54,489 bases of DNA from a bacterium (GCA_046080385.1 JBJTTW010000267.1:1-54489), one strand, 5' to 3'. Positions 1,710 through 51,869 are shown, counted from the first letter of the stretch. Made by a program: numbers and translations. Notes: generated from the letters alone by a model not told the origin.

Positions 1710-2435
1710 TTAATTTTGCATCCCTTTAGCTTCCATCGTTTCAGCGATTTGCCTCGTGGAGAGTTCTGGGCACTGTTGCCGAACTCCAATTTCTGCGTTT
1801 TCGTTGTCCTCATGATTCTCATGTACACCCAGTACACTGCGGTCATTCGTCCTCCTCAGCCTTGAACTTGTTCGTTTGGCAACAGTGCCTTCTGCTAGAG
1901 CTGTAAATATTAACTCAGCCTCGCTCATGTGATCTCTGAGATTTTGAGTCTTTAATTTTTTCAGATCTTTATGCTCTTTCACACTAAGCCCAGCCCATTC
2001 TTGATGAATCCACTTTTCACTGCGTCCATGTTTTTGCCAAGTATCACGAGCACGATCTAAAGACAGTTCTGGATCTGCCATCTCTTGCATACGCTCATAG
2101 CCTACCTTGGCGAGCCATAATTTAACAGGCTCAGCTTTAGGACTAGGAACCGACTGAATTAGTCTTAAGAGTGTCTCTGCTGCTGCAACATCAGTATTTC
2201 GCAATTTCCCATCACTAACTGGCATTTTCAACTGGTGACAAAATGTCACCAGCTCAGAACCCTCTTCTTTCAGCCTTTCTTTAAGCTTGTTCCAGTATTT
2301 TCTAGCCTTCTGATAATCTTCCTGCTCTGTGAGTATCTGAATAATATCTATAACTGAAAAATACCAAATCTCTTTTTCTTCATCATAGATTCGTCTAATT
2401 TTATAGTCTTCAAAAACACTTAAATCTTCTGTCAC
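1710..2435 (-). CDS. Bro-N / DNA-damage-inducible protein D (DinD)-like protein carrying an in-frame R1 insertion near the C-terminus
   Basis: N-terminal ..IRRIYDEEKEIWYFSVIDIIQILT.. is Bro-N-like. The C-terminal segment GTVAKRTSSRLRRTNDRSVLGVHENHEDNENAEIGVRQQCPE is encoded by R1. Removing it restores ..TALAELSTRQIAE.. Confidence 0.65.
   Translation of the reverse strand: MTEDLSVFEDYKIRRIYDEEKEIWYFSVIDIIQILTEQEDYQKARKYWNKLKERLKEEGSELVTFCHQLKMPVSDGKLRNTDVAAAETLLRLIQSVPSPKAEPVKLWLAKVGYERMQEMADPELSLDRARDTWQKHGRSEKWIHQEWAGLSVKEHKDLKKLKTQNLRDHMSEAELIFTALAEGTVAKRTSSRLRRTNDRSVLGVHENHEDNENAEIGVRQQCPELSTRQIAETMEAKGMQN
1769..1889 (-). mobile_element. R1 MITE-like element, full length (121 bp), inside a CDS
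   Basis: Arms are ggcactgttgccgaac / gtttggcaacagtgcc (15/16 complementary). A perfect 5-bp direct repeat TTCTG sits at 1764-1768 and 1890-1894. Element plus one repeat copy is 126 bp (42 codons). Confidence 0.85.
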
Positions 2436-2497
2436 AAAAAGGCTCCTATTTTTCTAACATCATCTATATTTTTAAAAGCCTGCTCAAACATAGTCTC

Positions 2498-3136
2498 TCA
2501 CTTGCCCGCAAGCCCAGCAAAAAAACCTTTATAAAACTCAAACGCCGTGGGGTTAGCAATCAAATGAGCAGTACAGTGCATAATCTTATGAATCGGCTCT
2601 AAGCCATTCTCTCTTAAAGTCTTTCCTGTAGCGACTAAATCTATAATCACATCAGTAAGATCAGTCAGTGGCGCAAGTTCTACTGAACCGTAAAGATTAA
2701 TAATCTCGACTTCAAGCCCGCGCTGATGAAAAAAATCTTTAGCTAAATTAGGAAAGGTCGTCGCAACACGCGTATAGCTAGGCAATTCAGAAACGCTTTT
2801 ATACTTGCCTTGCACAGAACAGACGCAGAGATCACAAGCCCCATATTTCAAATCTTGAAGCTGATGCACCTTCGCCCTAGAATCTAAAATTACGTCTAAG
2901 CCGACTATACCAAAGTCAGCAGCGCCATGTTCTACATAAACTGGTACATCATGCCCTCTTACCATAAGGAACTGAATATCATAATCTTTAAAAGCCTCAT
3001 TATGAATAGTACTGCGGCGAATTAATTTACGTTTCGCATCTTCACCATTTTCAATTTCAATACCAGCTTTACTAAAAAACTCTATAGCACCCTCTAAGAG
3101 AGCACCTTTAGACAAGGCTATTTTCACTTGTTGCAT
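2498..3136 (-). CDS. hisG: ATP phosphoribosyltransferase, short form
   Basis: 212-aa short HisG-like protein that overlaps the hisZ stop. Confidence 0.9.
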   Translation of the reverse strand: MQQVKIALSKGALLEGAIEFFSKAGIEIENGEDAKRKLIRRSTIHNEAFKDYDIQFLMVRGHDVPVYVEHGAADFGIVGLDVILDSRAKVHQLQDLKYGACDLCVCSVQGKYKSVSELPSYTRVATTFPNLAKDFFHQRGLEVEIINLYGSVELAPLTDLTDVIIDLVATGKTLRENGLEPIHKIMHCTAHLIANPTAFEFYKGFFAGLAGK

Positions 3137-4221
3137 ATTAAAACATTCGCTCCTTTCTCAAACTCAAGCTGAGCTGCTTTATAAACATCCCGCCATTCTT
3201 TAGCAGCTGGAGAAAGCTTTTTCGGGAGTTTATCAGTAGAAAAATTATCTAAAAGATTTAGATTAGATAATGCTGAAATCAGCCTTTGCACATAAAAAGC
3301 GAAACCTATCGCTGGCAGATCAATACCAAAGCTTGAATATAGATTATCGTATCTACCACCCATAGCGATATCATTACCTTGCCCTTTAATTAACAGCTTA
3401 AAATGCAGTCCCGTATAGAGTTTTAAATCTGGACACTGATACGGTGCGAAGACTATTTTAGAAGAAAGCTGAGCTAAACTCTTTAAGTGACTTAAATCTA
3501 AATCTAAATCCTTTTCAACTCTTTTTAACTTCTCTTCATTTGGAACAGATAGACTTATCTGCTCTTGGCTATAAAGGCACTTAAGAAAACTTTCTTCAAC
3601 AGCTAGTTTTTCAAATGCAACAAATTCACCTTTCAGTAAAAGGTTATAAGCCTTAGTAATTAAATCATGGCTAGAAGAAGCTTCTGAACTGATTACTGGG
3701 ACTGGTTTATTAAATTTAGCAAATAAGCTATGCCAGATTTTAGCATCGGTTATACAGATCTGATAATCACTTACACCTAATTCCTCAATAGAATCTATCA
3801 TTAATTGCAATACTTCATAATCGGAAAAGTTTTCTTCAGCCTTAGCACCGACATACTCTATACCGACTTGCTGTATCTCTCTAGATTCATCAGTAGGAGT
3901 GCCTTTATAGCGATAAACAGAAGCATTATAGTATAGCTTCACTGGAAGCTGAAGCTCTTGAGCCCTGCCAGCTATTGCTTTAGCAATAGGCTGAGTCATC
4001 TCTGTTCTCAGAGCAAGAGTTTCACCATCTTTATCTAAAAATGTAAAAGTTTTATCGGTAAACTTTTTATTTGCCCTATTTATAACATCTAAATCTACTA
4101 AACTCTGCACTACTATTGGTTCATAAGACCATTTTTCATAAAGAGCCACCAGCTTATTTTTTATCGCAAGCTGCTTTCTAACGTCAGATGGCAGCCATGT
4201 TTTTAAACCTCTAAATACCAT
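3124..4221 (-). CDS. hisZ: ATP phosphoribosyltransferase regulatory subunit (HisRS paralogue)
   Basis: Class II aaRS-like core without an anticodon-binding domain. It lies directly upstream of, and overlaps, short-form hisG. Confidence 0.8.
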   Translation of the reverse strand: MVFRGLKTWLPSDVRKQLAIKNKLVALYEKWSYEPIVVQSLVDLDVINRANKKFTDKTFTFLDKDGETLALRTEMTQPIAKAIAGRAQELQLPVKLYYNASVYRYKGTPTDESREIQQVGIEYVGAKAEENFSDYEVLQLMIDSIEELGVSDYQICITDAKIWHSLFAKFNKPVPVISSEASSSHDLITKAYNLLLKGEFVAFEKLAVEESFLKCLYSQEQISLSVPNEEKLKRVEKDLDLDLSHLKSLAQLSSKIVFAPYQCPDLKLYTGLHFKLLIKGQGNDIAMGGRYDNLYSSFGIDLPAIGFAFYVQRLISALSNLNLLDNFSTDKLPKKLSPAAKEWRDVYKAAQLEFEKGANVLICNK

Positions 4222-4274
4222 AAATTATTTCCTGTAAAATCTACGCAGCGAAAGGCGCATAGAATTAATCTTAT

Positions 4275-7301: not shown

Positions 7302-7357
7302 ATTATGCCTCAAAAAGAGGCATAATATGAGTTATAAGGTAGTAATTTATAACTCAT
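7302..7357 (+). promoter_or_regulatory. Two adjacent perfect hairpins/palindromes; the second overlaps the Fic start codon
   Basis: attatgcctc-aaaaa-gaggcataat (7302-7326) is followed by atgagttataa-N9-ttataactcat (7327-7357). The Fic ATG is at 7356. Confidence 0.55.
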
Positions 7358-8462
7358 GAAATGGAACTGGCAAAAAAAAGATTGGCCTGATTTTAAGTAT
7401 GATACAAGCCTGCTAGAGAAATACGAAGATGAATTTCTCCATAAATCTGGTATTTTCTTAGGTACCTTAAAACACATTCAGAATGAAGAGAAGATAGATT
7501 TAAAGATAGATATAATCTGCGAAGAAGCTTACCGAACATCTCTAATTGAAGGAGAATTTTTAAATAGAGAGAGTATACAATCGTCTATTAAAAAAAATTT
7601 TGGTATCTCAGTAATAGATATAAAAAAAATCCCCAGTGCAGAAGCCGGACTAGCTGAAATGATGCTAGATCTATATGATAATTTTTCACATCCTATCTCT
7701 AAAAAAAGTCTTGGTAGATGGAATTCTTTAATTCTTGATGGCATAAATTCTAAAATTAAAACTAGGTCATTTAGAAAAGATACCGAGCCGATGCAAGTTA
7801 TTTCAGGTTCAGTATACAGACCTAAAATACATTTTGAAGCACCTCCATCAGAGGCTTTAGAACATGAAATGAGAAACTTTATTCGGTGGTTTAATAATTC
7901 AAACCCAAATAAGCAAGACCCTTTAAAAACCTTAACTAGAGCTGGACTAGCTCACCTCTATTTCGTTTGCATACATCCATTTGATGATGGTAATGGACGA
8001 ATAGCTAGAGCTCTTGCAGAGAAAGCTTTATCTCAAGGATTAGGTGAGGCTAGCTTAATATCATTATCACAAGTGATAGAAAAGCATCGAAAGCAATACT
8101 ATGCTATCTTAGATGCATCTAACCGAGATCTTGAGGTCACTGATTGGTTAGAATACTTCTCTAAAACAGTATTAGAAGCTTTAGAATTAAGCCAAAAATC
8201 TATAGAATTCTCTTTAAAAAAAGGGAGATTTTGCAGACTTTATGAAAACAAGCTAAATCTAAGACAGGAAAAGGTTATCAGCAGAGTATTTAAAGAAGGA
8301 ATTCAAGGTTTTAAATGCGGCTTAAGTGCAGAAAATTATATCTCTATCACTAAAACCTCTAGGGCTACGGCTAGCAGAGACTTACAGGAATTAACCGAAA
8401 TGGGGGTTTTAGTTAAGACTGGTAATTTAAAAGGGACTCGTTATTATTTGAGTTTGGAGTGA
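7356..8462 (+). CDS. Fic family protein (DUF4172-type N-terminus, C-terminal wHTH)
   Basis: Fic motif HPFDDGNGRIARAL and N-terminal MKWNWQKKDWPDFKYD. Confidence 0.85.
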   Translation: MKWNWQKKDWPDFKYDTSLLEKYEDEFLHKSGIFLGTLKHIQNEEKIDLKIDIICEEAYRTSLIEGEFLNRESIQSSIKKNFGISVIDIKKIPSAEAGLAEMMLDLYDNFSHPISKKSLGRWNSLILDGINSKIKTRSFRKDTEPMQVISGSVYRPKIHFEAPPSEALEHEMRNFIRWFNNSNPNKQDPLKTLTRAGLAHLYFVCIHPFDDGNGRIARALAEKALSQGLGEASLISLSQVIEKHRKQYYAILDASNRDLEVTDWLEYFSKTVLEALELSQKSIEFSLKKGRFCRLYENKLNLRQEKVISRVFKEGIQGFKCGLSAENYISITKTSRATASRDLQELTEMGVLVKTGNLKGTRYYLSLE

Positions 8463-9885: not shown

Positions 9886-11310
9886 ATGCAGGAAATACAG
9901 TTAACAAACGGGAAACACGGTCACACTCTGAATGCCACACAAATCTTCTCCCCAGACGGTAATTGGTTAGTCTTCGATACTCGCAACGATGATACTCATA
10001 TAAGCCGCACGGGAAGTATCTGTAAGTTAAATATTGCGACTAAAGAAGTTATAGAACTTTATAAAACTAAAAATCAAAGCATTTATGGACCAGGGGTCGG
10101 GGCAGCAGCTTGGAACCCTGTCAATGACCAGATTATTTTCATTCATGGTCTTTTAAATTGTGATAAAGAAAAGCCTTACAGCTTCACAAGAAGGTTTGGA
10201 GCGATTATTTCAGGGAATCATCAAGCGGGCGAAAACGCAGAAATTGGAGTTCGGCAGCAGTGCCATCATGCGGAAGGGAGGAATATTCAAGAACCACTTA
10301 GCAAAGGAGCCTTAAGAGGCGGAACCCATGCTCATACGTGGAGTGCTGATGGCAAGTGGATTAGCTTTACTTACAACGATTATGTTATGGAATGTTTAGA
10401 AAAAACTTCTTCAAGTGAAAGAAAAGACTTGAGGACTATCGGCGTGATGACGATAGTAGAGAATATTCATGAGGATCGTGAGGCGGGTGAAAACGCAGAA
10501 ATTGGAGTTCGGCAGCAGTGCCCTGAAGAGAATTTCAGAGGAAGGTATTTCACGGTAATAACAGCTAAAGTTACAGAAAATCCTCAATTCGGCAGTGATG
10601 AAATAGAGCGAGCTTTCGATGAATGCTGGCTAGGGAAAAATGGTTACACGAAAGACGATAGCACTGTTCACAATGGTTCACAGCAGGCACGAGCCATAGC
10701 CTTTCAAGGAAATGTCCGTTCACTAGATGGGACTTTAGTTACAGAAGTTTTTATAGCAGATATTCCAGAGGATATAACACAATCACTCACAGATAAGCCA
10801 TTAGAAGGCACTTTAGATACAAGGCCTAATGTACCAGCAGGTTTAGTGCAAAGAAGAATTACTTTTACTACGGAAAGAAAATACCCTGGGCTTCAAGGAC
10901 CACGTTTCAGGCTACGCAGTTCAGCAGATGGAAGCTTGATTTATTTTCTAATGAAAGATGATAACGATATAGTTCAAATCTACTCAGTGAGCAGCATTAA
11001 AGATACTAAAAATATAATCACAAATCAGCCACTTAAACAAATAACAAATTTTAAATACTCAATTCAGTCACAATTCAATCTCAGCCCTGATGATAAATAC
11101 ATTTCAGTACTGTCTAACAATCAAATATATTTAGTTAACGTGCAAGATGGCAATATAACTAAGATCAGTGAGAGATACAGTGATAGAGAAGCACCAATCA
11201 GCGGCATACACTGGAGTCCAGACGGTAAAAGTTTAATTTACAATCGTTATGCCTTTATGGAAGATGCTTACTATATTCAGATTTTTCAAAGACTAATACC
11301 AAATGTGTAA
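9886..11310 (+). CDS. Beta-propeller (TolB/DUF3748-like) protein with two R1-derived in-frame inserts
   Basis: Repeated ..SPDG(N/K)W.. propeller-blade motifs. It contains GENAEIGVRQQC twice, encoded by nearly identical DNA. Confidence 0.6.
   Translation: MQEIQLTNGKHGHTLNATQIFSPDGNWLVFDTRNDDTHISRTGSICKLNIATKEVIELYKTKNQSIYGPGVGAAAWNPVNDQIIFIHGLLNCDKEKPYSFTRRFGAIISGNHQAGENAEIGVRQQCHHAEGRNIQEPLSKGALRGGTHAHTWSADGKWISFTYNDYVMECLEKTSSSERKDLRTIGVMTIVENIHEDREAGENAEIGVRQQCPEENFRGRYFTVITAKVTENPQFGSDEIERAFDECWLGKNGYTKDDSTVHNGSQQARAIAFQGNVRSLDGTLVTEVFIADIPEDITQSLTDKPLEGTLDTRPNVPAGLVQRRITFTTERKYPGLQGPRFRLRSSADGSLIYFLMKDDNDIVQIYSVSSIKDTKNIITNQPLKQITNFKYSIQSQFNLSPDDKYISVLSNNQIYLVNVQDGNITKISERYSDREAPISGIHWSPDGKSLIYNRYAFMEDAYYIQIFQRLIPNV
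10214..10264 (+). repeat. R1 right-half element inside a CDS
   Basis: ggaatcatcaagcgggcgaaaacgcagaaattggagttcggcagcagtgcc aligns to the right half of R1. Same reading frame as the 1769 copy. Confidence 0.8.
10468..10522 (+). repeat. R1 right-half element inside a CDS
   Basis: catgaggatcgtgaggcgggtgaaaacgcagaaattggagttcggcagcagtgcc. Same frame (HEDREAGENAEIGVRQQC). Confidence 0.8.
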
Positions 11311-16292: not shown

Positions 16293-16355
16293 GGGCGTGT
16301 AGCGAAACTCCAATTTCTGCGTTTTCCTTGAACTTGTTCGTTCGGCTACACGCCC
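16293..16355 (-). mobile_element. R1 element, short form (internal deletion)
   Basis: Arms are gggcgtgtagcgaaac / gttcggctacacgccc. The core is reduced to tccaatttctgcgttttc|cttgaacttgttc. Flanking pentamers are GTGAT / ATGAT (4/5). It starts 1 nt after the Fic stop codon. Confidence 0.8.
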
Positions 16356-16372
16356 ATGATAAAATACCACCC

Positions 16373-21258: not shown

Positions 21259-21259
21259 A

Positions 21260-21299
21260 GAGCACTGCTCAACTCCATTTTCTGCTATTTCATCGTTCT
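21260..21299 (-). repeat. Degenerate R1 end fragment
   Basis: gagcactgctcaactccattttctgctatttcatcgttct aligns to arm plus tccaatttctgcgttttcgtcgtcct. It starts 2 nt after the dnaG stop. Confidence 0.45.
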
Positions 21300-21326
21300 A
21301 CTGAATAACATTTCTTGCTCAAAAAC

Positions 21327-30271: not shown

Positions 30272-30346
30272 CGCACTGTTGCTGGACCCCAATTTCTGCG
30301 TCTTCGTCGTCCTCAGCCTTGAACTTGTTCGCTCGGCAGCAGTGCC
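30272..30346 (-). mobile_element. R1 element, short form (deletion between the internal tcgtcctc repeats)
   Basis: Arms are cgcactgttgctggac / gctcggcagcagtgcc. Flanking pentamers are GTAAT / GTAGT (4/5). It starts 1 nt after the rplY stop. Confidence 0.8.
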
Positions 30347-31834: not shown

Positions 31835-31955
31835 GAGACTGTTTCCAAACTACAATTTCTTCGTTTTCGTCGTCCTCATGATCCTCATATACCTATAGTA
31901 CACTGCGGTCATTCGTTCTCCTCAGCCTTGAACTTGCACGCTTGAAAACAGTCTC
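31835..31955 (-). mobile_element. R1 element, full length (121 bp)
   Basis: Arms are gagactgtttccaaac / gcttgaaaacagtctc. Flanking pentamers are CTCTT / ATCTT (4/5). It ends 17 nt from ATG 31817. Confidence 0.85.
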
Positions 31956-41733: not shown

Positions 41734-41740
41734 GAAACTG

Positions 41741-42164
41741 GGGGGACTACTCCCAAACTCCAATTTCTGCGTTTTCGTCGTCCTCATGATCCTCATGCAC
41801 ACCTAGTGCACTGCGGTCATTCGTCCTCCTCAGCCTTGAACTTGTTCGTTTGTGAGCAGTCCCCCTCCTGTGATGGCTCCCAATCTTCAATTTCTGCGTT
41901 TTCGTCGTCCTCATGATCCTCATGCACACCTAGTGCACTGCGGTCATTCGTCCTCCTCAGCCTTGAACTTGTTCGTTTGTGAGCAGTCCCCCTCCTGTGA
42001 TAGCTCCCAAACTCCAATTCCTGCGTTTTCGTCGTCCTCATGATCCTCATGCACACCTAAGTGCACTGCGGTCATTCGTCCTCCTCAGCCTTGAACTTGT
42101 TCGTTTGTGAGCAGTCCCCCTCCTGTGATAGCTCCCAATCTTCAATTTTTGCGTTTTCGTCGTC
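41741..42164 (-). repeat. Head-to-tail tandem array of R1 units (3 full units plus a partial fourth; period 127/127/128 bp)
   Basis: ctcccaa[ac][ct]tccaattt.. recurs at 41750, 41877, 42004 and 42132. The first unit has both arms (gggggactactcccaaac / gtttgtgagcagtccccc). Confidence 0.9.
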
Positions 42165-42210
42165 AAGCGATAGCAGCGTGCTAAAATTAAAGTTTTGAGG
42201 AGTAAAATTA

Positions 42211-43248
42211 ATGCCTGTAGCTAACTATAAACAATACATTGAAATGCTCGATAGAGCTAAAAAAGATAAATACGCATATCCTGCGGTAAATATAACTTCA
42301 CTTGCGACTATCAGTGCGACTTTAAAAGCTTTTGCTGATGCTAAATCTGATGGTATCATCCAGGTTTCCACTGGTGGAGCTGAATTCGCTTCAGGTCTAG
42401 CACAAAAAAATATGGTTTTAGGAGCGACAGTGCTTGCTGAAGCCATTCATACTTTAGCTGAAAAATATGATATTTTAGTCGCTATCCACACTGACCACTG
42501 TCAGCCAGGGAAAGTAGATTCTTTCTTAAAGCCACTTATCGCGAAGACAGCAGAAAGAAGAGCTAAAGGCTTACCTAATTTATTTAACTCTCATATGTTT
42601 GATGGTTCTGAACTTTCGACTAAAGAGAACATAGCTATCGCTAAAGAACTTATTAAACTCTGTAATGATAACGAAATTATTTTAGAAGTAGAGACTGGTG
42701 TAGTCGGCGGCGAGGAAGATGGAGTGGATAACTCTGGTCATTCTAATGAAAAGCTTTATACGACACCAGAAGATATGCTTTACGTTTGGGAAGAATTAAG
42801 CCCAATTAACGAAAGATTTATGCTAGCTGCCACTTTCGGAAACGTGCATGGTGTCTACAAACCAGGTAACGTAAAACTTACACCTAGCATTCTTAAAGAA
42901 GGTCAGGCTGCAGTTAAAGCTAAATTTGGAAAAGAACACCTACTAGTATTTCATGGTGGCTCTGGCTCTGAGTTAAGCGATATTCACGAGACTTTAGAAT
43001 ATGGCGTTATTAAAATGAACATAGATACTGATACTCAGTACGCTTTCACTAGACCTATAGTGGAGCATATGTTTAAAAATTATGATGGCGTTCTTAAAAT
43101 CGAAGGCGAAGTAGGTAATAAAAAAGTTTATGATCCTAGATCTTACTTAAAGAAAGCTGAAGAAAGCATGGCTGCGAGAATTGGCCAAGCCTGCGCAGAT
43201 CTTAAATCTTCTGGTAAATCGATTTATAAATCTTTAGTTACGGCTTAG
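42211..43248 (+). CDS. fbaA: Fructose-bisphosphate aldolase, class II
   Basis: ..VAIHTDHC.. and ..VFHGGSGS.. motifs, with a gaggag SD upstream. Confidence 0.9.
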   Translation: MPVANYKQYIEMLDRAKKDKYAYPAVNITSLATISATLKAFADAKSDGIIQVSTGGAEFASGLAQKNMVLGATVLAEAIHTLAEKYDILVAIHTDHCQPGKVDSFLKPLIAKTAERRAKGLPNLFNSHMFDGSELSTKENIAIAKELIKLCNDNEIILEVETGVVGGEEDGVDNSGHSNEKLYTTPEDMLYVWEELSPINERFMLAATFGNVHGVYKPGNVKLTPSILKEGQAAVKAKFGKEHLLVFHGGSGSELSDIHETLEYGVIKMNIDTDTQYAFTRPIVEHMFKNYDGVLKIEGEVGNKKVYDPRSYLKKAEESMAARIGQACADLKSSGKSIYKSLVTA

Positions 43249-43273
43249 TTTTTAAATTATTAACAAATAATGC

Positions 43274-43315
43274 AAAATCACCTTGGAATATGTTAATATA
43301 TTTTAAGGTGATTTT
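43274..43315 (+). terminator. fbaA terminator hairpin whose 3' arm is the SD of the next ORF
   Basis: aaaatcacctt-N20-aaggtgatttt, a perfect 11-bp stem, then tat before ATG 43319. Confidence 0.6.
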
Positions 43316-43318
43316 ATT

Positions 43319-43870
43319 ATGGGTTTAGGTAGTTTATTTGGTAATTTAGCTAAAAGTTTTCTTACTGGTGGTACTGGAGCTGCTGAGCAGCCATCAACTA
43401 TACAGAGGACAGAGGCAAAATCAAATCCAACAACACCTCTTGAACAGGTTAATGCGGCAGTTCGTGAAACAAGCCAACAGGAATTAAAGGAATTAAATGC
43501 ACCAGAACCAGCCCCTAGCGCAGCAGCTATAATGCCTGAAGTTCCACTAGGCAATCAAGCAGAGCCTTTGAAGGCAATTAATCAGGAAGAAATTAAGCCC
43601 GCAATTAAACTAGAAATTTCTCAAGAAACAGTAAAAACTTTCGAGCCCATGCTTTTAACAGCCATAAAATTCCTTAAGGAAATACTTCCATTTTTCGCAG
43701 CAGGGATTAAAACGATTTTACCTAAATCAGAGGTAAATCAAATATCCTCAAACATAATAAAAAACAATGGCGGTCCCGAAAAAGCTATGCAGTGGCTGGA
43801 GGCACATGTAAAAAATAATCCCATTCTTGCCCGAGCAAACACCCTAAATCCTACTGCAAACCCAGCCTAA
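43319..43870 (+). CDS. Hypothetical protein (low-complexity P/A/T/E-rich middle, hydrophobic segment)
   Basis: 183 aa with an aaggtga SD. Preferred over the antisense ORF 43303..43554. Confidence 0.5.
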   Translation: MGLGSLFGNLAKSFLTGGTGAAEQPSTIQRTEAKSNPTTPLEQVNAAVRETSQQELKELNAPEPAPSAAAIMPEVPLGNQAEPLKAINQEEIKPAIKLEISQETVKTFEPMLLTAIKFLKEILPFFAAGIKTILPKSEVNQISSNIIKNNGGPEKAMQWLEAHVKNNPILARANTLNPTANPA

Positions 43871-43918
43871 TAAAGCATTCTATTTAAAATCAATTTAGAT
43901 CTAATCTGTTTTTACAAA

Positions 43919-43958
43919 CTCAAATATATTTTTGAGGAAAAACGAACCCTTAAAATTT
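43919..43958 (+). repeat. R3 motif copy a (cassette leader)
   Basis: ctcaaatatatttttgaggaaaaacgaacccttaaaattt. Confidence 0.75.
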
Positions 43959-44231
43959 CAGAAAAAATTCAGCATACTCATATCCATGCCGCACTATGAG
44001 AGAGTCAATGAATACCGTATTGAGATTATTAAGTCACTAGGTTTTTGGCTTATAAGCCCGACTGGTTTATTAGTTTATATGTTTTTATTTGATGATACTA
44101 AATTATTTCAAGAAATGAATCTAGTAAAAGCTATGATAGCTTTACTGTTACTAATTTCTGGGATAAAATGCTTAGATAAAGCTTATGAAATAAATAAAGA
44201 GCTTGATAAAGAGGAAAACTGGAATGTCTAG
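43932..44231 (+). CDS. Small 2-TM membrane protein (cassette 1, gene A); likely starts at ATG 43986
   Basis: Weakly paralogous to 44441..44635 (K.LGFWLISP versus K.SGFAFLTP). Confidence 0.5.
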   Translation: MRKNEPLKFQKKFSILISMPHYERVNEYRIEIIKSLGFWLISPTGLLVYMFLFDDTKLFQEMNLVKAMIALLLLISGIKCLDKAYEINKELDKEENWNV

Positions 44232-44361
44232 AACACTGCTTATAGAGATACAACAAGCTTCACTAGTGCTTTTCAACGTCGCATGCGTCTACATCGGTAT
44301 TCACTGGGTTCTTTTCAGAGACCGTTCCAAAGAAAAAACTAAAAAAATTCAACAGCCTTAA
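44224..44361 (+). CDS. 45-aa single-TM peptide (cassette 1, gene B), not in the ORF track
   Basis: ATG overlaps the stop of gene A by 8 nt. Translates to MSRTLLIEIQQASLVLFNVACVYIGIHWVLFRDRSKEKTKKIQQP. A decayed paralogue lies at 45377. Confidence 0.45.
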   Translation: MSRTLLIEIQQASLVLFNVACVYIGIHWVLFRDRSKEKTKKIQQP

Positions 44362-44374
44362 TATTAAAATTTTT

Positions 44375-44414
44375 CTCAAATATATTTTTGAGGAAAAACG
44401 ACCCCTTAAAATTT
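44375..44414 (+). repeat. R3 motif copy b
   Basis: ctcaaatatatttttgaggaaaaacgaccccttaaaattt. Confidence 0.75.
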
Positions 44415-44440
44415 TTTCTATTTTTGCGAAGCTAATTTAA

Positions 44441-44635
44441 GTGGGTAATTTAATCGAGCCGTATAAATACTGTGCAGATGTTTTAAAATATTCTGGCTTT
44501 GCTTTTCTCACTCCAGTAGCGAGTTTGGTACTAAGCTTGATAACAGATTTTTCTTTTACATTTGATCCTAATCAATTAGAGCGGTATGTTGTTGCTGGAT
44601 TATTTTTCATTTTGGAATTAAAATTTATCTTATAA
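44441..44635 (+). CDS. Small 2-TM membrane protein (cassette 2, gene A)
   Basis: GTG start, 64 aa. Confidence 0.45.
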   Translation: MGNLIEPYKYCADVLKYSGFAFLTPVASLVLSLITDFSFTFDPNQLERYVVAGLFFILELKFIL

Positions 44636-44666
44636 GGCTTATCCATATTACAAAAAGGAGTTATTG

Positions 44667-44804
44667 ATGAATCTGCAAAATCTTGATTGGAATTTCATCT
44701 ATGGTGTGATTTTTTTAGTAATACCTATGCTCATAGGAGCCTTTTGGCTTGAATATCACTGTTATCACCTAAAAATGCGTGAGCTAGAGACTTTAGAAAA
44801 GTAA
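44667..44804 (+). CDS. 45-aa single-TM peptide (cassette 2, gene B), not in the ORF track
   Basis: aaggag SD 7 nt upstream. Translates to MNLQNLDWNFIYGVIFLVIPMLIGAFWLEYHCYHLKMRELETLEK. Confidence 0.5.
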   Translation: MNLQNLDWNFIYGVIFLVIPMLIGAFWLEYHCYHLKMRELETLEK

Positions 44805-44808
44805 TAAT

Positions 44809-44835
44809 GGAGGAAAAACGACCCCTTAAAATTTT
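44809..44835 (+). repeat. R3 motif copy c (partial)
   Basis: ggaggaaaaacgaccccttaaaatttt. Confidence 0.7.
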
Positions 44836-45000
44836 GTTCAAGATGAAGCAGAATTTTTTCTATGGATTTATCTGAGAAGATAGAAATATTAGAATCTGAA
44901 AAAGTTAAGTCTAGAATCCTTATGCAGGGTGGCTTTTGTTGCATGATACCTTTTACATAATGCTTTTAATGAGTTACCATAAAATAAGACGCTAGGAGAA

Positions 45001-45106
45001 TTATACCATTCTGGAAAATTCTTTTGAGTCCAAGCAGTCGGAAACTAGGACTGCGCAAGGGACATATAAAAGTCTTTTTCAGATTAAAATGGTATTTTGG
45101 TATTAG
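45001..45106 (+). mobile_element. R2 repeat copy a (~106 bp, MITE-like)
   Basis: ttataccattctggaaaattc...gattaaaatggtattttggtattag. By hand alignment, 104/106 identical to the reverse complement of 47406..47511. Confidence 0.8.
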
Positions 45107-45109
45107 AAT

Positions 45110-45289
45110 ATGGCTTGGGATTATTTTTTTACTATGCCTGCTATTACAGTCCTATTTTTTCTTTTAATTTATCGCTTGCATTATGGGTTTTATAAAATCG
45201 ATTTAGAATGTGGCGATAAAAATGCAATAAAGCCCACATTAGCAGAGGTTTTTCTTGGGATTAGAAAAAAGAAGTCTGAGGAAAAATAA
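45110..45289 (+). CDS. 59-aa single-TM peptide, not in the ORF track
   Basis: MAWDYFFTMPAITVLFFLLIYRLHYGFYKIDLECGDKNAIKPTLAEVFLGIRKKKSEEK. The ATG is 4 nt after the end of R2a. Confidence 0.35.
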   Translation: MAWDYFFTMPAITVLFFLLIYRLHYGFYKIDLECGDKNAIKPTLAEVFLGIRKKKSEEK

Positions 45290-45376
45290 CTCCATTTTTT
45301 ATGTTTATTTATTGGAGAACAGCCTACTGTAGCTGATCAGATGCCTATCCTCCCCTAACTAAAGACGAAAGCTACA

Positions 45377-45515
45377 ATGCCTAAAACACTACTCATCGAG
45401 ATACAACCATCTTCACTAATGCTTTTCAACGTCGCATGCCTCTATACCCCGGCATTCACTAGGTGCTTTTCAGAGACCGTTCCAAAGATAAAAAACTAAA
45501 AAAATTACACAGCCC
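45377..45515 (+). pseudogene. Decayed paralogue of the 44224 peptide gene
   Basis: atgcctaaaacactactcatcgagatacaacc.. parallels 44224.. at the DNA level, but indels shift the frame after about 22 codons. Homology runs up to the R2b insertion. Confidence 0.55.
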
Positions 45516-45620
45516 TAATACCATTCTGCAAAATTCTTTCGAGCTCCCAGCAGTCCAAAATTAGGACGACACAAGGGATATGAAAAAATTTCCAGATCAA
45601 AATGGTATTTTGATATTAAG
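45516..45620 (+). mobile_element. R2 repeat copy b (diverged)
   Basis: taataccattctgcaaaattctttcgag...atcaaaatggtattttgatattaag. It interrupts the sequence that is contiguous at 44355-44375 in cassette 1. Confidence 0.7.
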
Positions 45621-45720
45621 CCTAAAAACCCTAAACCAAGCTCAGGAACACGAATTCTGCACTATAAACTATAAAAGTTAAATTTCAATTAAAAAATATT
45701 TTTTTTCGAACAAAAAAAAC

Positions 45721-45749
45721 TTTACATTTATTTCCGCGTTTGTTAATAT
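45721..45749 (+). promoter_or_regulatory. Strong sigma70-type promoter of the small peptide gene
   Basis: TTTACA, 17-nt spacer, TAATAT. Confidence 0.6.
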
Positions 45750-45802
45750 CTTAAGTATAAGTCGAGTACGTAAGTACAAATTAATCAAGGAGAAAATAAA
45801 TT

Positions 45803-45937
45803 ATGGTATCAATAAACCCAGCACCACCAGCAGCTGTAACAGTAAAACAGACACCAGCAACAGCAATTAGCAAAGAGCCTTCACCTCAACCTTCAACTCC
45901 AGCTCCTACGGGCGGCAGAGGTCTCGACATTCACTAA
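45803..45937 (+). CDS. 44-aa Pro/Thr/Ala-rich peptide, not in the ORF track
   Basis: aaggag SD 8 nt before the ATG. Translates to MVSINPAPPAAVTVKQTPATAISKEPSPQPSTPAPTGGRGLDIH. It has its own promoter and terminator. Confidence 0.6.
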   Translation: MVSINPAPPAAVTVKQTPATAISKEPSPQPSTPAPTGGRGLDIH

Positions 45938-46004
45938 TCGCAGAAATTTCTAATTCCCTGCAACGGTGCATAAAACAACTTAGTAACCCTAAGTTTAAAT
46001 AACT

Positions 46005-46045
46005 AGAAAGAGAAAACCCCGCCACAAGCGGGGTTTTCTCTTTCT
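46005..46045 (+). terminator. Very strong hairpin terminator
   Basis: agaaagagaaaaccccgc-cacaa-gcggggttttctctttct, a perfect 18-bp stem. Confidence 0.75.
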
Positions 46046-46067
46046 ATCTTAATCAGTAAAAAGTAAT

Positions 46068-46135
46068 CTCCCCCGAACTCCAATTTCTATGCTTTTATCC
46101 TCCTCAGTCTTGAACTCACACCTTCGGCAACAGTG
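46068..46135 (-). repeat. R1 element, short and degenerate (the arms no longer pair)
   Basis: ctcccccgaactccaatttctatgcttttatcctcctcagtcttgaactcacaccttcggcaacagtg. Confidence 0.65.
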
Positions 46136-46238
46136 AAAATCCTCTAAAACCTAAATCACGCTTCGCTAAATTTTAAACTTAGAGCTGTGAGTCCCACAAT
46201 TTTTAGATATAAAAATTACCGCTTCTTTTTCTTTTCAA

Positions 46239-46359
46239 GGCACTGTTGCCGAACAAACAAGTTCAAGGCCGAGGAGGACGAATGACCGCAGTGTACTGCG
46301 GGTACATGAGGATCATGAGGACGACGAAAACGCAGAAATTGGAGTTCGGCAACAGTGCC
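46239..46359 (+). mobile_element. R1 element, full length; used here as the reference orientation
   Basis: Perfect 16-bp terminal inverted repeat ggcactgttgccgaac / gttcggcaacagtgcc. Its open frame runs in-frame into the nuclease fragment. Confidence 0.9.
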
Positions 46360-46388
46360 AAGATAGAACTAGCTCAGGTCGTATAGAT

Positions 46389-46592
46389 ATGGTTTTAGAA
46401 ACAAGTTCTAAAATTTATTTATTTGAGTTTAAGGTAAATTCGACATCTAGACTAGCGTTAGAACAGATTAAAGAAAAAAAATATTATGAGAAATATGAAA
46501 ATGTCGAAGATAAAAAACTTTTACTTGTAGGTATTAATTTTGATTTAAATTCTAAAAATATCTCAGAGACTGAGGTTCTAGAGTGGAATTAA
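46389..46592 (+). pseudogene. C-terminal fragment of a PD-(D/E)XK (DUF1703/AAA-ATPase-like associated) nuclease family gene
   Basis: (GRID)MVLETSSKIYLFEFKVNSTSRLALEQIKEKKYYEKY.. matches the C-terminus of that family. The roughly 400 upstream codons are absent, and R1 sits at the break. Confidence 0.6.
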
Positions 46593-47344
46593 CAGCTGTG
46601 CTGTACCTGACTAATCGCTGTAATCTATTCTGTGATCACTGTGATCAAAGCTCAGGTAATGCACGTGAAAATGAATTGACTACTAGTGAAATTCTTCAAG
46701 GAGTAGAGAAACTCTTAAAGGGAGAGCCTTTTGAGCATTTGCAGTTCGAGATCTCAGAAAGTAGAGTGCCACACAATTCTACTCCTGTAGCAGGGCAAGA
46801 GATCAGGCACGTCTGCCTATCTGGAGGAGAGCCTGTATTACATAAAGATTTTTTCTATATAGCTCGCACTTTGATGGATTGGGGATTAGAAGTGAGTTTC
46901 ATTACTAACGCGACTTTTAGTCCAGTCTATTATTCACGAATATTAGAATTGGACTTTAATGCAATTTACGTAAGCTTAGATGGTCTAGAAAATACACATA
47001 ATTTACTAAGGCGTTCTGGATTGAGTTTTAAGAGGGTAATTCAGTTCTTGGAGTTTGTAAATGACTGTTTGGCTAAGCCAGTAGCTGAAATAGGCTTAAA
47101 TGCGACTGTTGCTGAGCCTCTAAACTCAATACAGAAAGTTTTTTCAGGGGATCTTTATGTTGTGACTTGCGTTACATCTAAGTCTGTTAATGATTTAGAG
47201 GCTTTATCTGAATTGCTTTCTAAGTACAAAATTACTAAATGGTTTTTAAAGCCTCTTGAAATGAAGGGAAGGGCTTTAGAGCATCCAGAGTTGTGGGTGG
47301 ATGCTTCTACAGAAGAACAATTTCTGCGTTATAGCAAAAGATAA
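46583..47344 (+). CDS. Radical SAM protein, no SPASM/twitch C-terminal domain
   Basis: CNLFCDHC (CxxxCxxC), GGEP, and SLDG..H...R motifs. GTG start. Confidence 0.7.
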   Translation: MELTAVLYLTNRCNLFCDHCDQSSGNARENELTTSEILQGVEKLLKGEPFEHLQFEISESRVPHNSTPVAGQEIRHVCLSGGEPVLHKDFFYIARTLMDWGLEVSFITNATFSPVYYSRILELDFNAIYVSLDGLENTHNLLRRSGLSFKRVIQFLEFVNDCLAKPVAEIGLNATVAEPLNSIQKVFSGDLYVVTCVTSKSVNDLEALSELLSKYKITKWFLKPLEMKGRALEHPELWVDASTEEQFLRYSKR

Positions 47345-47860: not shown

Positions 47861-47862
47861 TT

Positions 47863-49114: not shown

Positions 49115-49118
49115 AAAA

Positions 49119-49916: not shown

Positions 49917-49936
49917 TCATAAACCTAATAAATTAA

Positions 49937-50662: not shown

Positions 50663-50675
50663 ATTATAATTTAAA

Positions 50676-51779
50676 ATGACTGTGGCTAATGAATCAAGAA
50701 TTTTATCTGTTTGGAAATTAAGAACTTATCAACTTTTTGTTATTTCTTTATTTTTCTTTATCGTAAATAATGTACTTTCTGCTGTATCTCAAGTTTCAGA
50801 TATTAGTGCTAGTTTCTTTATTGGTGTTCTTATTAATTACTTATTATCTAAGCCTGTAGATTTTCTAACTCACTATATACGCTCTCGTGCTTTGTCTGTT
50901 GCCATAATTTATTTAACTTTTATTGGACTTTTGATCACTTTAATTATTAATGGTTTTCCAGTGATATTTGTTCAGGCACAAGCTTTGATAAACGTTTTTC
51001 CGCAGCTTCTACCTAAGATTAATTCGGTAATTGAGTTTGTTTTATTATATTTAGCTCAACATCAAATTAATATTAGTTTTGTGAGCCTTGATTTAAGCAG
51101 CTTTGCAAATAACTTACTTCAGCTCAAACAGAATATGACGGTCGCTGATTTTGGTTCAGTGTTCACTTCTTTTATTACTAATTCTTTTTCTTTAATTCTT
51201 TATTCTTTGCTTTCGATTTTAATTAGTATTTATTTACTGGTAGACGGAAAAAGAGTCTGGGACCTGTTTCTAGAGCCTTTTACGGGTAAACTTAAAGATC
51301 ATTTATTTTATTTAAAACAAAGAATTGATAAAAGCCTTTATGCATTTATTGTTGGACAGTTTCAAATAGCTTCTTTAACTACACTTGTTATGACTTGTAC
51401 TTATTTTGCTCTCAATATACCCTTTGCACTGGTTTTTGGCTTGTGTCAAATGTTGGAGGTTATACCAGTAATTGGAACTTGGGTAGCGATAATTCCATGT
51501 GTAGTCCTAATTGGTTTTGCTACTACGCCAACTAAAGCTTTAATAGCTTTTGGTGTTTATATTTTCTATACGCAGATTATTCGAGATAATTTCGTTACTC
51601 CGCGTATTATGGGAGATGCACTTGGCTTTCATCCTTTAGCGATTATTCTAGGATTGCTGGTTGCAGCTAAGCTGTATGGGGCGATTGGAATAGTTTTTGC
51701 TCTGCCTTTAATGGCTGTAATCGGTGCTGCGATTCAATATTTTCTTGAGGTTAATCATCTTAAGGTTAAGAAAATTTAG
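50676..51779 (+). CDS. AI-2E family transporter (PerM-like)
   Basis: Eight hydrophobic segments in a PF01594-like layout. Confidence 0.75.
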   Translation: MTVANESRILSVWKLRTYQLFVISLFFFIVNNVLSAVSQVSDISASFFIGVLINYLLSKPVDFLTHYIRSRALSVAIIYLTFIGLLITLIINGFPVIFVQAQALINVFPQLLPKINSVIEFVLLYLAQHQINISFVSLDLSSFANNLLQLKQNMTVADFGSVFTSFITNSFSLILYSLLSILISIYLLVDGKRVWDLFLEPFTGKLKDHLFYLKQRIDKSLYAFIVGQFQIASLTTLVMTCTYFALNIPFALVFGLCQMLEVIPVIGTWVAIIPCVVLIGFATTPTKALIAFGVYIFYTQIIRDNFVTPRIMGDALGFHPLAIILGLLVAAKLYGAIGIVFALPLMAVIGAAIQYFLEVNHLKVKKI

Positions 51780-51780
51780 A

Positions 51781-51869
51781 GGCGGGCGAAAACGCAGAAA
51801 ATGGAGTTCCGCAGTGGTGGGCGTGTAGCCGAACGAACAAGTTCAAGGCTGAGGAGGACGAATGACTGC
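51781..51869 (+). repeat. R1 composite: a right-half unit followed by a left-half unit (tandem-junction arrangement)
   Basis: ggcgggcgaaaacgcagaaaatggagttccgcagtggt + gggcgtgtagccgaacgaacaagttcaaggctgaggaggacgaatgactgc. It fills the whole gap between two convergent stop codons. Confidence 0.75.

Follow-up and report, generated by a model that had tools for sequence, protein, structure and literature searches.

The DNA analyzed here, a bacterial stretch of 54,489 nucleotides (the window), carries a repeat of about 121 bp, R1, whose terminal arms differ between copies and remain largely complementary within each copy. This raises the question of whether R1 is a structured RNA or a mobile element, and what its ends are conserved for.

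R1 copies in the window and their host range

Using blastn and nhmmer, we detected R1 sequence at all 11 loci proposed in the initial annotation. The window contained six full 121-nt copies together with fragments, distributed as follows.

1769-1889, minus strand: full copy (blastn, 94% over 121 nt)
10215-10264, plus strand: 3' fragment, element positions ~72-121, in frame in the DUF3748/PD40 β-propeller gene 9886-11310
10462-10522, plus strand: 3' fragment, positions ~61-121, in frame in the same gene
16293-16355, minus strand: internal-deletion derivative, positions 1-30 joined to 88-121, both arms kept (blastn, nhmmer)
21259-21304, minus strand: degenerate 3' fragment, positions ~75-121 (nhmmer E=0.001; blastn)
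30272-30346, minus strand: internal-deletion derivative, positions 1-44 joined to 78-121, both arms kept (blastn, nhmmer)
31835-31955, minus strand: full intergenic copy, flanks AAGAT/AAGAG (blastn, nhmmer)
41743-42164, minus strand: tandem array (TRF: period 127, 3.3 copies, 96% matches)
46073-46135, minus strand: degenerate internal-deletion derivative, positions ~3-40 joined to 78-111, classed as keeping both arms (blastn, nhmmer)
46239-46359, plus strand: full intergenic copy with a perfect 16-bp terminal stem, used as the reference copy
51779-51880, plus strand: 3' fragment (79-116) directly followed by a 5' fragment (2-69) (blastn, nhmmer)

The derivative at 16293-16355 begins 2 nt past the stop codon of a Fic-domain gene (15209-16291), and the fragment at 21259-21304 lies directly behind the stop codon (21258) of dnaG, whose product was recognized by its DnaG domains. 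The derivative at 30272-30346, located between an L25 gene and a pseudouridine synthase gene, has its deletion junction inside the GAGGACGA direct repeats. Flanked by the genes for RNase J and fructose-bisphosphate aldolase, the array starts, when read in the orientation of the element, with a 3' fragment (42127-42164), followed by units at 41997-42118, 41870-41990 and 41743-41863, and the unit junctions consist of a degenerate right arm plus AGGAGG. The reference copy lies 224 nt upstream of a radical-SAM gene (46583-47344) and has no clear 5-bp duplication (TTCAA/AAGAT), and the fragment pair at 51779-51880 is found between the AI-2E transporter and rhodanese genes.

A 23-nt and a 40-nt core motif each occurred six times, against zero expected in shuffles. 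Across ~690 kb of loci from six genomes, we identified 224 R1 matches, 86 of which were full copies. R1 was present in at least five Melainabacteria (Vampirovibrionia/Caenarcaniphilales) assemblies, with five metagenome-assembled genomes (MAGs) in the genome scan, and the names of further R1-bearing MAGs were likewise all of Melainabacteria type. No phage or plasmid match for R1 was found. A scan of the window against Rfam 15 returned a tRNA-Pro as its sole match and none for R1, and a permissive scan of 46150-46450 gave two chance-level matches, both outside R1. R1, at 121 bp, is a genuine mobile repeat of the Melainabacteria, which are non-photosynthetic cyanobacteria, and is specific to this group (Vampirovibrionia, Caenarcaniphilales).

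Target sites and residence inside genes

Hallmarks of transposition, which the initial annotation had thought unlikely, are present in R1 as 5-bp target-site duplications and filled/empty sites. An exact 5-bp flanking repeat was found at 19 of 75 loci, compared with 0.8% in controls, and a repeat matching at four or more of the five bases at 35 of 75, compared with 6.3%; the signal was confined to the 5-bp register. A clean duplication was missing at about half of the loci, and many of these hold copies in tandem or nested arrangement. Between genomes, orthologous sites can be filled or empty, as in the DUF3748 gene family, where the L093 orthologue carries a clean 126-nt insertion with flanks TCGAA/TCAAA at a site that is empty in the window and in the L092 orthologue. 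The target is AT-rich with the loose consensus [A/C][T/A]N-A-[T/A/G]; stop codons resemble it, and intergenic copies often abut them. R1 is a mobile element and not a housekeeping RNA.

[quoted passage not shown] Neither a transposase nor an integrase or reverse transcriptase was found among the 50 window ORFs scanned for domains, and no transposase domain occurred in or next to the window R1 copies. In the window and the ~690 kb of loci, there was no longer or autonomous element sharing the R1 ends.

In-frame residence in genes is the most striking property of R1, and one that the initial annotation missed. Together with its duplication, the element spans 121 + 5 = 126 nt, equivalent to 42 codons. 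About 40% of full copies (36 of 86) are read through inside genes, all in the sense frame F1; no full copy is read through in any other frame, though an antisense frame is open in 61 of the 86. R1 copies that land in genes survive in one orientation and frame only. Overall, 83 of the 224 matches lie within long ORFs on the strand of the element, one of which has a short antisense ORF across it as well. The F1 frame is stop-free, and its predicted peptide (20 residues followed by x-V-H-E-D-H-E-D-D-E-N-A-E-I-G-V-...) is very hydrophilic, with a GRAVY of -1.43 compared with -0.45 for the antisense peptide. In the intergenic copy at 31835-31955, a TAG in the hairpin loop breaks F1.

By translation, the hosts of in-gene copies include homologues of guaA, murE, radA, coaBC, cysN and glpD. 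GuaA with R1 has ~63 and ~30 extra residues relative to the solved GMP synthase 5tw7. The window copy at 1769-1889, flanked by the exact repeat CAGAA/CAGAA, lies within the ORF 1710-2435 of a Bro-N domain protein and is read through in F1, with 188 aa upstream in this frame and a stop 18 codons on. In the DUF3748 gene, the fragments at 10215-10264 and 10462-10522 encode AGENAEIGVRQQC and HEDREAGENAEIGVRQQC, respectively. At the first site, the L092 and L093 orthologues carry a 3' fragment plus a full copy, and the window state is the recombinant between the two CGAAAACGCAGAAATTGGAGTT repeats. The second remnant is missing in distant homologues (~435 aa), and close orthologues have shorter remnants. 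In the AlphaFold model of this protein, the R1-derived pieces are the sole segments with pLDDT below 50 (aa 119-123 and aa 197-213 for the first and second remnants), and the R1 peptide remnants are thus predicted to occupy low-confidence loops in the one host protein modelled.

Arm pairing, decay and alternative explanations

The arm sequences had been quoted correctly in the initial annotation, as had the change of the central hairpin from tgTac/gtAca to tgCac/gtGca; the claim that arms are complementary within each copy holds overall, with two mismatches in each of the 31835 and 41741 arms. To re-evaluate covariation, we used 73 non-orthologous full copies from six genomes. In the terminal helix, 91.8% of cells were paired, and both sides had changed in 14 of the 16 pairs. 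Compensated cells numbered 246, compared with 65.1±9.0 in shuffles (0 of 500 reached 246) and 17-65 in controls with the partner slid by 1-3 columns, and the 48 further pair types exceeded the shuffled value of 38.7±2.0 (0 of 500). Covariation was also seen in two of five pairs of the central hairpin, and none was detected in the 7-bp inner helix of these 73 copies. The arm covariation proposed from the window is real.

As had also been proposed, conservation is reversed relative to a classical MITE: divergence is 36-40% in the arms and 57% in the hairpin loop, and only 2.5-5.6% in the core, so that R1 lacks the sequence-conserved terminal repeats of MITEs. The core shows no codon periodicity, indicating that the constraint acts on its nucleotide sequence. 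Among 44 well-paired copies (at most one mismatch), there were 26 distinct left arms, and 35 distinct compensated variants, many in single copies, occurred within the four arm subfamilies. The covariation is therefore not merely the product of a few clonal subfamilies, the outcome that would have undermined the initial proposal.

These numbers bear on an account in which R1 comprises classical MITE subfamilies, each arm type being the terminal inverted repeat of its own cognate transposase, with the two ends co-varying only since both must match one protein. Four major arm types, each found in all sampled genomes, are compatible with it, as are the 5-bp duplications and filled/empty sites. However, the 26 arm sequences and 35 compensated variants could be served only by dozens of different transposase specificities, conservation lies in the core and not at the ends, and no transposase was found in the window ORFs or R1 loci searched; we consider this account improbable.

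In orthologous copies, at an overall divergence of 2-5%, 11 arm positions had changed on one side and four on both. The both-sided differences could point to DNA-level copying, by hairpin template switching or inter-copy conversion, as the source of arm complementarity without selection for pairing. The same may be said of the sole clear compensated change among orthologous copies (at arm position 6 of the guaA copy, where a transversion turned G-C into T-A), of the central-hairpin variant TGTATCAAGCATACA, whose reappearance as a whole in one orthologue and in unrelated copies points to conversion, and of site 3 of L092, where microhomology patch conversion took place with no duplication. This origin is nevertheless unlikely, given that in-situ changes were mostly one-sided, that two of the four both-sided cases were independent one-sided C-to-T changes that did not restore pairing, and that an invariant core beside drifting arms is left unexplained.

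Fragments are unevenly represented, with 44 solo 3' fragments and 16 composites of a 3' fragment and a full copy against 15 solo 5' fragments, an excess of 3' fragments of about three to one. At least 16 full copies are directly preceded by a 5'-truncated copy, often sharing the same rare arm variant, and a by-eye count among the 36 in-gene copies gave about 20. Neither simple cut-and-paste nor replicative DNA transposition predicts this arrangement. A SINE-like RNA intermediate would be a folded transcript of stem and conserved core whose reverse transcription, starting at the 3' end, and integration should yield concatemers and copies truncated at the 5' end; it would agree with the variable 5' ends of the abundant 3' fragments, the partial unit at the start of the window array, the permuted order at 51779-51880, and a core constrained at the nucleotide level beside a covarying stem. 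Against it, the duplication length is fixed at 5 bp, no reverse transcriptase was found among the window ORFs scanned, and intergenic copies occur in both orientations. Mismatches were of G:U type in 47 cases and of A:C type in 36, an excess that is not significant and therefore gives no pointer to an RNA on a particular strand. The two 3' fragments whose origins were examined at the DNA level arose by adjacent-copy recombination and by patch conversion. We regard an RNA intermediate as quite unlikely.

Least probable is that R1 benefits its host as a structured RNA or a cis-regulatory module, stabilising mRNA, terminating transcription or acting as an SD/anti-SD switch, along the lines suggested in the initial annotation. 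In favor of such a role, the reference copy has a stable predicted RNA fold (-51.9 kcal/mol, z = -7.8), intergenic copies lie up against stop codons, co-orientation of these copies with neighbouring genes is moderate (50 vs 26 flanks) and the core holds GGAGG-N5-ATG, but there is no Rfam family match and no T-tract behind the stem, resident copies decay, the neighbouring genes are functionally unrelated, and the 42% of full copies inside coding sequence would have to be translated. A consensus scan of one 5.2-kb stretch, covering five of the eleven loci and leaving two full dispersed copies outside, found nothing resembling a terminator on R1; a single weak match to a promoter overlapped the edge of the array. 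Nor is R1 a discrete structured-RNA gene of the kind suggested in the initial annotation: it has no Rfam match, and resident orthologous copies show mostly one-sided decay in place of maintained pairing.

Proposed mechanism and comparison with known systems

We favor, as the probable explanation, that R1 is a non-autonomous element with MITE-like anatomy and a behavior resembling that of the Rickettsia palindromic elements (RPEs). A putative enzyme that cuts with a 5-bp stagger, in the simplest case a DDE-type transposase, would move it in trans. In cis, its propagation would require the invariant, purine-rich core of ~85 nt, in which purines make up 67% of the forward strand, and the 16-bp terminal stem, free in sequence as long as its two sides pair. 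Since it is the propagating lineages, and not the resident copies, on which pairing is enforced, mobilisation probably involves recognition of the stem in a folded form, either single-stranded or cruciform. DDE transposases normally read terminal sequence, and the free-sequence termini of R1 are atypical for them. The Tn7, Mu and Tn402 group combines 5-bp duplications with TG...CA ends, which R1, with termini GG...CC, does not have. Once inserted, copies decay through one-sided C-to-T changes and through the loss of internal segments between the two GAGGACGA...CGCAG direct repeats; they also recombine with adjacent copies and are converted from others, and these events together account for the many 3' fragments.

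R1 resembles classical bacterial MITEs (Correia, RUP, Nezha) in being small and present in many copies, in having terminal inverted repeats and a target-site duplication, and in showing nested insertions, internal-deletion derivatives and filled/empty polymorphism. The difference lies in the terminal repeats, which classical MITEs conserve as the part bound by the transposase and often share with a parent IS. It is the ends, in contrast, that vary most in R1, and neither the window nor the R1 loci yielded a parent IS. With REP/REPIN-RAYT and IS200/IS605-derived elements, whose mobility relies on a hairpin recognized as a structure in single-stranded DNA, R1 would share a dependence on hairpin structure. 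These elements do not duplicate their target and are associated with an HUH (Y1) transposase gene; REPs are shorter, and the hairpins of IS200/IS605-derived elements are subterminal, not terminal. Membership is excluded by the 5-bp duplication and by the absence of a Y1/HUH gene among the 50 window ORFs. Integron attC sites are structure-conserved, sequence-variable imperfect palindromes that bound cassettes and have conserved outer R''/R' boxes. They can likewise be set aside, as R1 is conserved in the center and variable outside, has no cassette arrangement and duplicates its target.

As summarized in PMC3184786, bcr1 of the Bacillus cereus group (Økstad 2004, Klevan 2007) is a transcribed mobile repeat of ~155 bp with 5-bp direct repeats, no known transposase, compensatory changes that preserve the predicted fold, and a strain-variable genomic distribution. 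On these properties, R1 is similar in its 5-bp flanking repeats, compensatory base changes and lack of a detected transposase. It differs in host and sequence, its contrast between core and arms has been quantified, and in-frame residence in genes, seen in R1, is not among the properties summarized there for bcr1.

The RPEs (Ogata et al. 2000, 2002), as described in summary in PMC10969869 and PMC3184786, are palindromic-ended repeats of ~105-150 bp without a transposase, dispersed intergenically and, in nearly half of cases, lying in frame in unrelated housekeeping genes, where they add a conserved peptide that the host protein tolerates. So far as these summaries describe them, R1 matches the RPEs in its palindromic ends, intergenic spread, frequent in-frame insertion into genes and lack of a detected transposase, and it differs in its clear 5-bp target duplication, free-sequence terminal stem and almost invariant core. 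Like an RPE, R1 is an in-frame palindromic repeat read in one frame as a conserved peptide (36 of 86 copies; GuaA against 5tw7; the DUF3748 series), and the comparison to RPEs made in the initial annotation was apt, pairing having been kept through many independent compensated changes. The hosts are unrelated, being Cyanobacteriota of the class Vampirovibrionia for R1 and Rickettsiales for the RPEs, and a relationship in sequence between the two would not be expected. Since the R1 hosts named in the records are Melainabacteria (Vampirovibrionia, Caenarcaniphilales) MAGs, we regard R1 as an analogue of the RPEs and not a member of them, likened by its properties and not by its sequence.

Copies of R1 in the window and beyond

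R1 is a mobile element. All 11 window loci listed in the initial annotation were recovered by both blastn and nhmmer, and the arm sequences and the central hairpin change quoted there were correct. The reference copy at 46239-46359 has a perfect 16-bp terminal inverted repeat, and core motifs of 23 nt and 40 nt occur six times apiece in the window and never in shuffles. Six copies are full-length (121 nt), three of them units of a tandem array that opens with a partial unit. The other loci comprise 3' fragments, derivatives with internal deletions in which both arms survive, and a single locus where a 3' fragment precedes a 5' fragment.

41743-42164: R1 tandem array, period 127, three full-length units
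1769-1889: full R1 copy inside an ORF with a Bro-N domain, in frame F1 (the sense reading frame of R1), 18 codons ahead of the stop, flanked by CAGAA and CAGAA

Two R1 copies lie in a 2.3-kb region (44231-46583) whose ORFs are all short, under 80 aa, and which has no match in Rfam; it also holds a terminator-like 20-bp hairpin on the minus strand (46004-46046). Elsewhere, housekeeping genes between 121 and 16291 are interspersed with a cluster that includes three Fic/DOC-domain genes: one at 675-1664 has a RhuM domain, another at 7356-8462 has DUF4172, and the third spans 15209-16291. The cluster also takes in a Bro-N gene (1710-2435) and, at 121-678, the gene for an S subunit of a type I restriction-modification system.

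The exact R1 pattern was found in at least 91 stretches of the species-representative genome collection, and the matches listed all came from five MAGs, labelled Candidatus Caenarcaniphilales, Candidatus Melainabacteria, Vampirovibrionia, Cyanobacteria REEB446 and, in one case, 'Proteobacteria'. The last, RFQS01, is MAG WB4_1_1465, titled 'Proteobacteria bacterium' (loci such as L001, L011 and L053). Because it has orthologous loci in common with the other R1-bearing MAGs (R1, plus 7-22 kb that can be aligned and that takes in orthologous R1 insertion sites, with each of the four Melainabacteria/Caenarcaniphilales MAGs), its label is probably wrong. A search with the R1 peptide added MAGs named Melainabacteria, Vampirovibrionia or just 'bacterium'; among the matches listed, other phyla were represented by EBR67 'Proteobacteria' records alone, which are the RFQS01 assembly, and all were short 'hypothetical proteins' on intergenic copies only, without host genes. 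Many intergenic copies stand in public MAG annotation as such 'hypothetical proteins' of 42-70 aa (P0001-P0049), which are probably gene-calling artefacts of the stop-free frame.

A phage or plasmid origin is ruled out by the absence of an exact core match from IMG/VR and of any blastn match from plasmid and phage collections, and a known RNA family by the absence of Rfam matches at gathering and permissive thresholds. Literature searches did not find such an element described in Melainabacteria or Caenarcaniphilales. An nhmmer profile gave 224 matches in about 690 kb of collected R1-bearing sequence; 86 of these, spread over 75 non-orthologous loci, are complete and have 30-nt flanks.

Terminal pairing and target sites

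Covariation was assessed in a gapless alignment of 73 non-orthologous 121-nt copies (A2). In the terminal helix, 91.8% of cells are paired and both sides change in 14 of the 16 pairs. Compensated cells number 246, compared with 65±9 when the letters of the 3' side are shuffled (reached in 0 of 500 shuffles) and 17-65 when partners are slid by 1-3 columns. Two measures are robust to relatedness, namely pairs with double changes (16 against 12.7±1.2 expected; 2 of 500 shuffles) and further pair types (48 against 38.7±2.0; 0 of 500). The covariation of the arms proposed from the window's sequence is borne out by these figures. The arms form four major types, and 26 distinct left arms occur in the 44 copies with at most one mismatch; within the types, 35 distinct compensated variants stand beside 66 uncompensated ones, a diversity beyond that of a few clonal subfamilies. 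The central hairpin covaries in two of five pairs (UA to CG and CG to UA) around a hypervariable 5-nt loop, and the inner 7-bp helix showed no covariation among the 73 copies.

Divergence of the parts of R1
Arms: mean pairwise divergence 36-40%; between orthologous copies of different MAGs 5.0%
Hairpin loop: mean pairwise divergence 57%
Core: mean pairwise divergence 5.6%; between orthologous copies of different MAGs 2.3%
Unpaired core: mean pairwise divergence 2.5%
Flanks: between orthologous copies of different MAGs 3.3%

Conservation of the core through coding is ruled out, third codon positions being no more variable than the others (0.029 against 0.036 and 0.062); because codon periodicity is absent, the core is taken to be constrained as nucleic acid. 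A small ORF starting from GGAGG-N5-ATG is broken by stops in many copies, and frame 2 is open in 4 of 86. Mismatches of G:U type (47) do not significantly exceed those of A:C type (36), so that no RNA strand is singled out. A hammerhead-like motif (CUGAGGAG...CGAA) was dismissed by eye, as it has no stem II.

At 19 of 75 loci the five bases outside one arm are repeated exactly outside the other, and at 35 of 75 four or more of them agree, compared with 0.8% and 6.3% when left flanks are paired with unrelated right flanks; registers of 4, 6 and 7 bp are at background level only. Filled and empty sites were found across orthologous regions of different MAGs, for example at L001 (empty, GCCATGAT) and L054 (GATGA-[R1]-CATGA). 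The duplicated target is rich in A and T and loosely follows [A/C][T/A]N-A-[T/A/G], frequently resembling a stop codon; together with selection, this accounts for the start of intergenic copies 1-8 nt past stop codons. Sequence beyond the duplication resembles the arms no more than permuted controls do (p = 0.10-0.38); because these outer flanks are unrelated to the arms, the arms are neither target guides nor copies of the target.

In-frame copies and their fate

One copy with its duplication (121 + 5) adds 126 nt, or 42 codons. Counting as read through any copy within a long ORF that has at least 40 codons on each side, 36 of the 86 full copies qualified, all on the element's own strand and in frame F1, with none in other frames. 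The antisense frame is stop-free in 61 of the 86; were both stop-free frames equally tolerated, the binomial estimate for 36:0 would be about 4×10^-10. With fragments included, long ORFs on the same strand as the element enclose 83 of the 224 matches. By eye, we take the host proteins to include homologues of MurE, RadA, CoaBC, CysN and GlpD, of a DUF2309/DabA-like protein and of a cation antiporter. A GMP synthase homologue bearing R1 aligns with the solved structure 5tw7 in three blocks, and its extra residues (about 63 and about 30) fall exactly at R1 sequence. The F1 peptide is very hydrophilic (GRAVY -1.43; antisense peptide -0.45). Because F1 is stop-free and the frame bias strict, the insert, judged by its reading frames, must be translated and not removed from the mRNA. 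Between genes, either orientation of R1 is found, with a moderate co-orientation bias (50 versus 26 flanks), so the absolute bias within genes is best explained by selection, not by the insertion mechanism. Separately, the PAPS-reductase domain at window 16328-17296 spans 230 residues versus a 175-position Pfam profile, and the protein may carry an additional insert.

The window's ORF 9886..11310 encodes a DUF3748/PD40 β-propeller protein. Its distant homologues (about 435 aa) have no R1 sequence, whereas close orthologues from Melainabacteria are 464-554 aa long, with differing R1 states at four sites.

R1 states in the ORF 9886..11310 and its close orthologues (P numbers, proteins; L092 and L093, orthologous loci)
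Site 1, window and P0058: R1 3' fragment (ENAEIGVRQQC)
Site 1, P0053 and P0067: the 3' fragment (ENAEIGVRQQC) and a full R1 copy
Site 1, P0063: fragment, full copy and a nested second element
Site 1, P0056: fragment and three codons of the full R1 copy only
Site 2: R1 remnant kept by every close orthologue, longest in the window
Site 3, L092 alone: 42-nt R1 3' piece in place of 15 coding nucleotides, at the position matching window about 11230
Site 4, L093 alone: clean 126-nt R1 insertion, flanks TCAAA and TCGAA
Site 4, window and L092: empty site TCGAA

At the DNA level, the window's state at site 1 is a recombinant between two CGAAAACGCAGAAATTGGAGTT repeats of the composite of fragment and full copy. 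The piece at site 3 of L092, the REEB446 orthologue, lacks a duplication and is bounded on either side by microhomology, so it resembles patch conversion or templated repair from an R1 copy, not transposition. In P0051 the whole segment between sites 1 and 2 is duplicated (alignment A3, columns about 117-215), placing about 80 β-propeller residues in tandem. This apparently arose by unequal exchange between two R1 remnants, in which case R1 copies would serve as recombination substrates within a gene. In the AlphaFold2 model of the window protein (72 sequences; mean pLDDT 88.4, pTM 0.89), pLDDT falls below 50 only at residues 119-123 and 197-213, the two R1-derived pieces.

Orthologous arms differ by one-sided changes at 11 positions and both-sided changes at four. 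In two of these four, C-to-T changes arose independently on opposite arms and pairing was not regained. Two ortholog groups (L032/L074/L078 and L048/L071; contexts GGGA[C]TG and CTG[C]TG) show C-to-T at a shared arm base pair, on opposite arms in different genomes, a pattern suggestive of a hot spot for deamination, perhaps a methylated motif in the palindromic arms. At one locus, orthologous central hairpins differ by a whole block (TGTATCAAGCATACA) also present in unrelated copies, which points to its acquisition by conversion from another R1 copy. On these orthologue comparisons, pairing is not visibly maintained at resident loci and is a property of lineages still propagating; mainly for this reason, we place the selective constraint on mobilisation, not on host function.

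Internal deletions are common, with junctions in the two GAGGACGA...CGCAG direct repeats or in other short homologies. Fragments of the 3' end (44 solo and 16 directly ahead of a full copy) exceed those of the 5' end (15). The 17 solo 5' fragments inspected proved to be products of internal deletion or to lie at the edge of a locus, and are thereby ruled out as IS ends. At least 16 full copies are preceded by a 5'-truncated copy, usually at a spacing of exactly 5 nt, and a count by eye found one ahead of about 20 of the 36 in-gene copies. The truncated copy often has the same rare arm variant as the full copy, with a degenerate outer arm half, and in two presence/absence comparisons the composite was either there or missing as a single block. 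Such composites may have formed when R1 inserted again at the regenerated target and a deletion followed; two adjoining copies would meet in a 16-bp palindrome around a 5-nt spacer, an arrangement likely to be unstable. Alternatively, a concatemeric intermediate may lie behind them.

R2, another small element (about 76-78 nt), lay within R1 in every case checked and carries a covarying hairpin of its own plus a AAGCTTGA-TTTA-TCAAGCTT hairpin. It occupies a fixed position in the R1 central hairpin (GTA^CA, TA flanks) in 17 'long-form' copies (L008, L011, L015, L019, L024, L028, L038-L041, L051, L058, L068, L076, L085, L088; for example L068:4706-4917), and the window has none. One orthologous locus has the short form in three genomes and the long form in one, with the same loop, which makes R2 an insertion/deletion polymorphism. 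Its 78 nt preserve the reading frame (peptide ISSDAEDASHVSGSYPSKQKYKLDL).

Mobilisation and comparison with known elements

No transposase, integrase, HUH or RT domain was found in the 50 window ORFs, and the window's genes are ordinary chromosomal ones (hisG, gap, miaA, dnaG, rplT, putA, nadB, gltX, asd, dapA, rnj, fba, bioB, minCDE). The R1-bearing loci examined held no longer element with R1 ends, and repeats of at least 350 bp within a genome were paralogous genes only. Pairs of 5' and 3' halves lying 0.8-5 kb apart, considered as an autonomous partner, are distinct remnants lying within a GH31-like gene.

A duplication fixed at 5 bp favours mobilisation of R1 by an enzyme whose cuts are staggered. 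The further idea that R1 passes through a folded single-stranded intermediate, recognised by shape (a stem of arbitrary sequence) and by the invariant purine-rich core, maybe as RNA with concatemeric or 5'-truncated products, the 5-bp duplications being kept, strikes us as improbable. If true, it would explain how an element whose ends are free to drift could nevertheless colonise essential genes; to our knowledge, a structure-guided, possibly SINE-like, mode of transposition is undescribed in bacteria. As a natural experiment on the cis requirements of small mobile elements, R1 is unusually clean. Its ends keep pairing but not sequence and its centre keeps sequence but not coding, which may point to mobilisation that reads structure. 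REP/RAYT and IS200/IS605-type mechanisms do not make target duplications and are thereby ruled out. A promoter or terminator role is likewise rejected, scans of 41500-46700 being at shuffled expectation: the consensus scan placed no terminator-like site on R1, and one weak promoter-like match (9/12) overlaps the array edge. The interpretation in the initial annotation survives in its structure-dependent ends, through covariation, and in its RPE-like comparison, and fails as a non-transposon or regulatory RNA, given the 5-bp duplications and the resident pairing not visibly maintained.

In the Melainabacteria-type clade, orthologues are set apart by blocks of 42 residues, with consequences for sequence alignment, tree building and the prediction of structures. 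Palindromic repeats that settle in frame in housekeeping genes have reportedly been regarded as peculiar to Rickettsia, as in the title of Ogata et al.

R1 has the same anatomy as miniature inverted-repeat transposable elements, except that its variable part is the ends. With bcr1 of the Bacillus cereus group it shares 5-bp direct repeats and compensatory changes that keep the folded structure, as that element is described in a passage of PMC3184786. Rickettsia palindromic elements (RPE) are portrayed, in passages of PMC10969869 and PMC3184786, as palindromic repeats of about 105-150 bp, nearly half of them in frame in unrelated metabolic genes. R1 and RPE have in-frame gene colonisation in common, at similar frequency and in unrelated lineages, and by analogy of behaviour R1 is the closest analogue of RPE so far. 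Two properties of R1 stand out: its pattern of conservation is inverted, and it has entered essential genes, as RPE do, in a lineage unrelated to theirs. The same phenomenon in uncultured non-photosynthetic cyanobacteria makes it a recurrent evolutionary strategy, not a curiosity.
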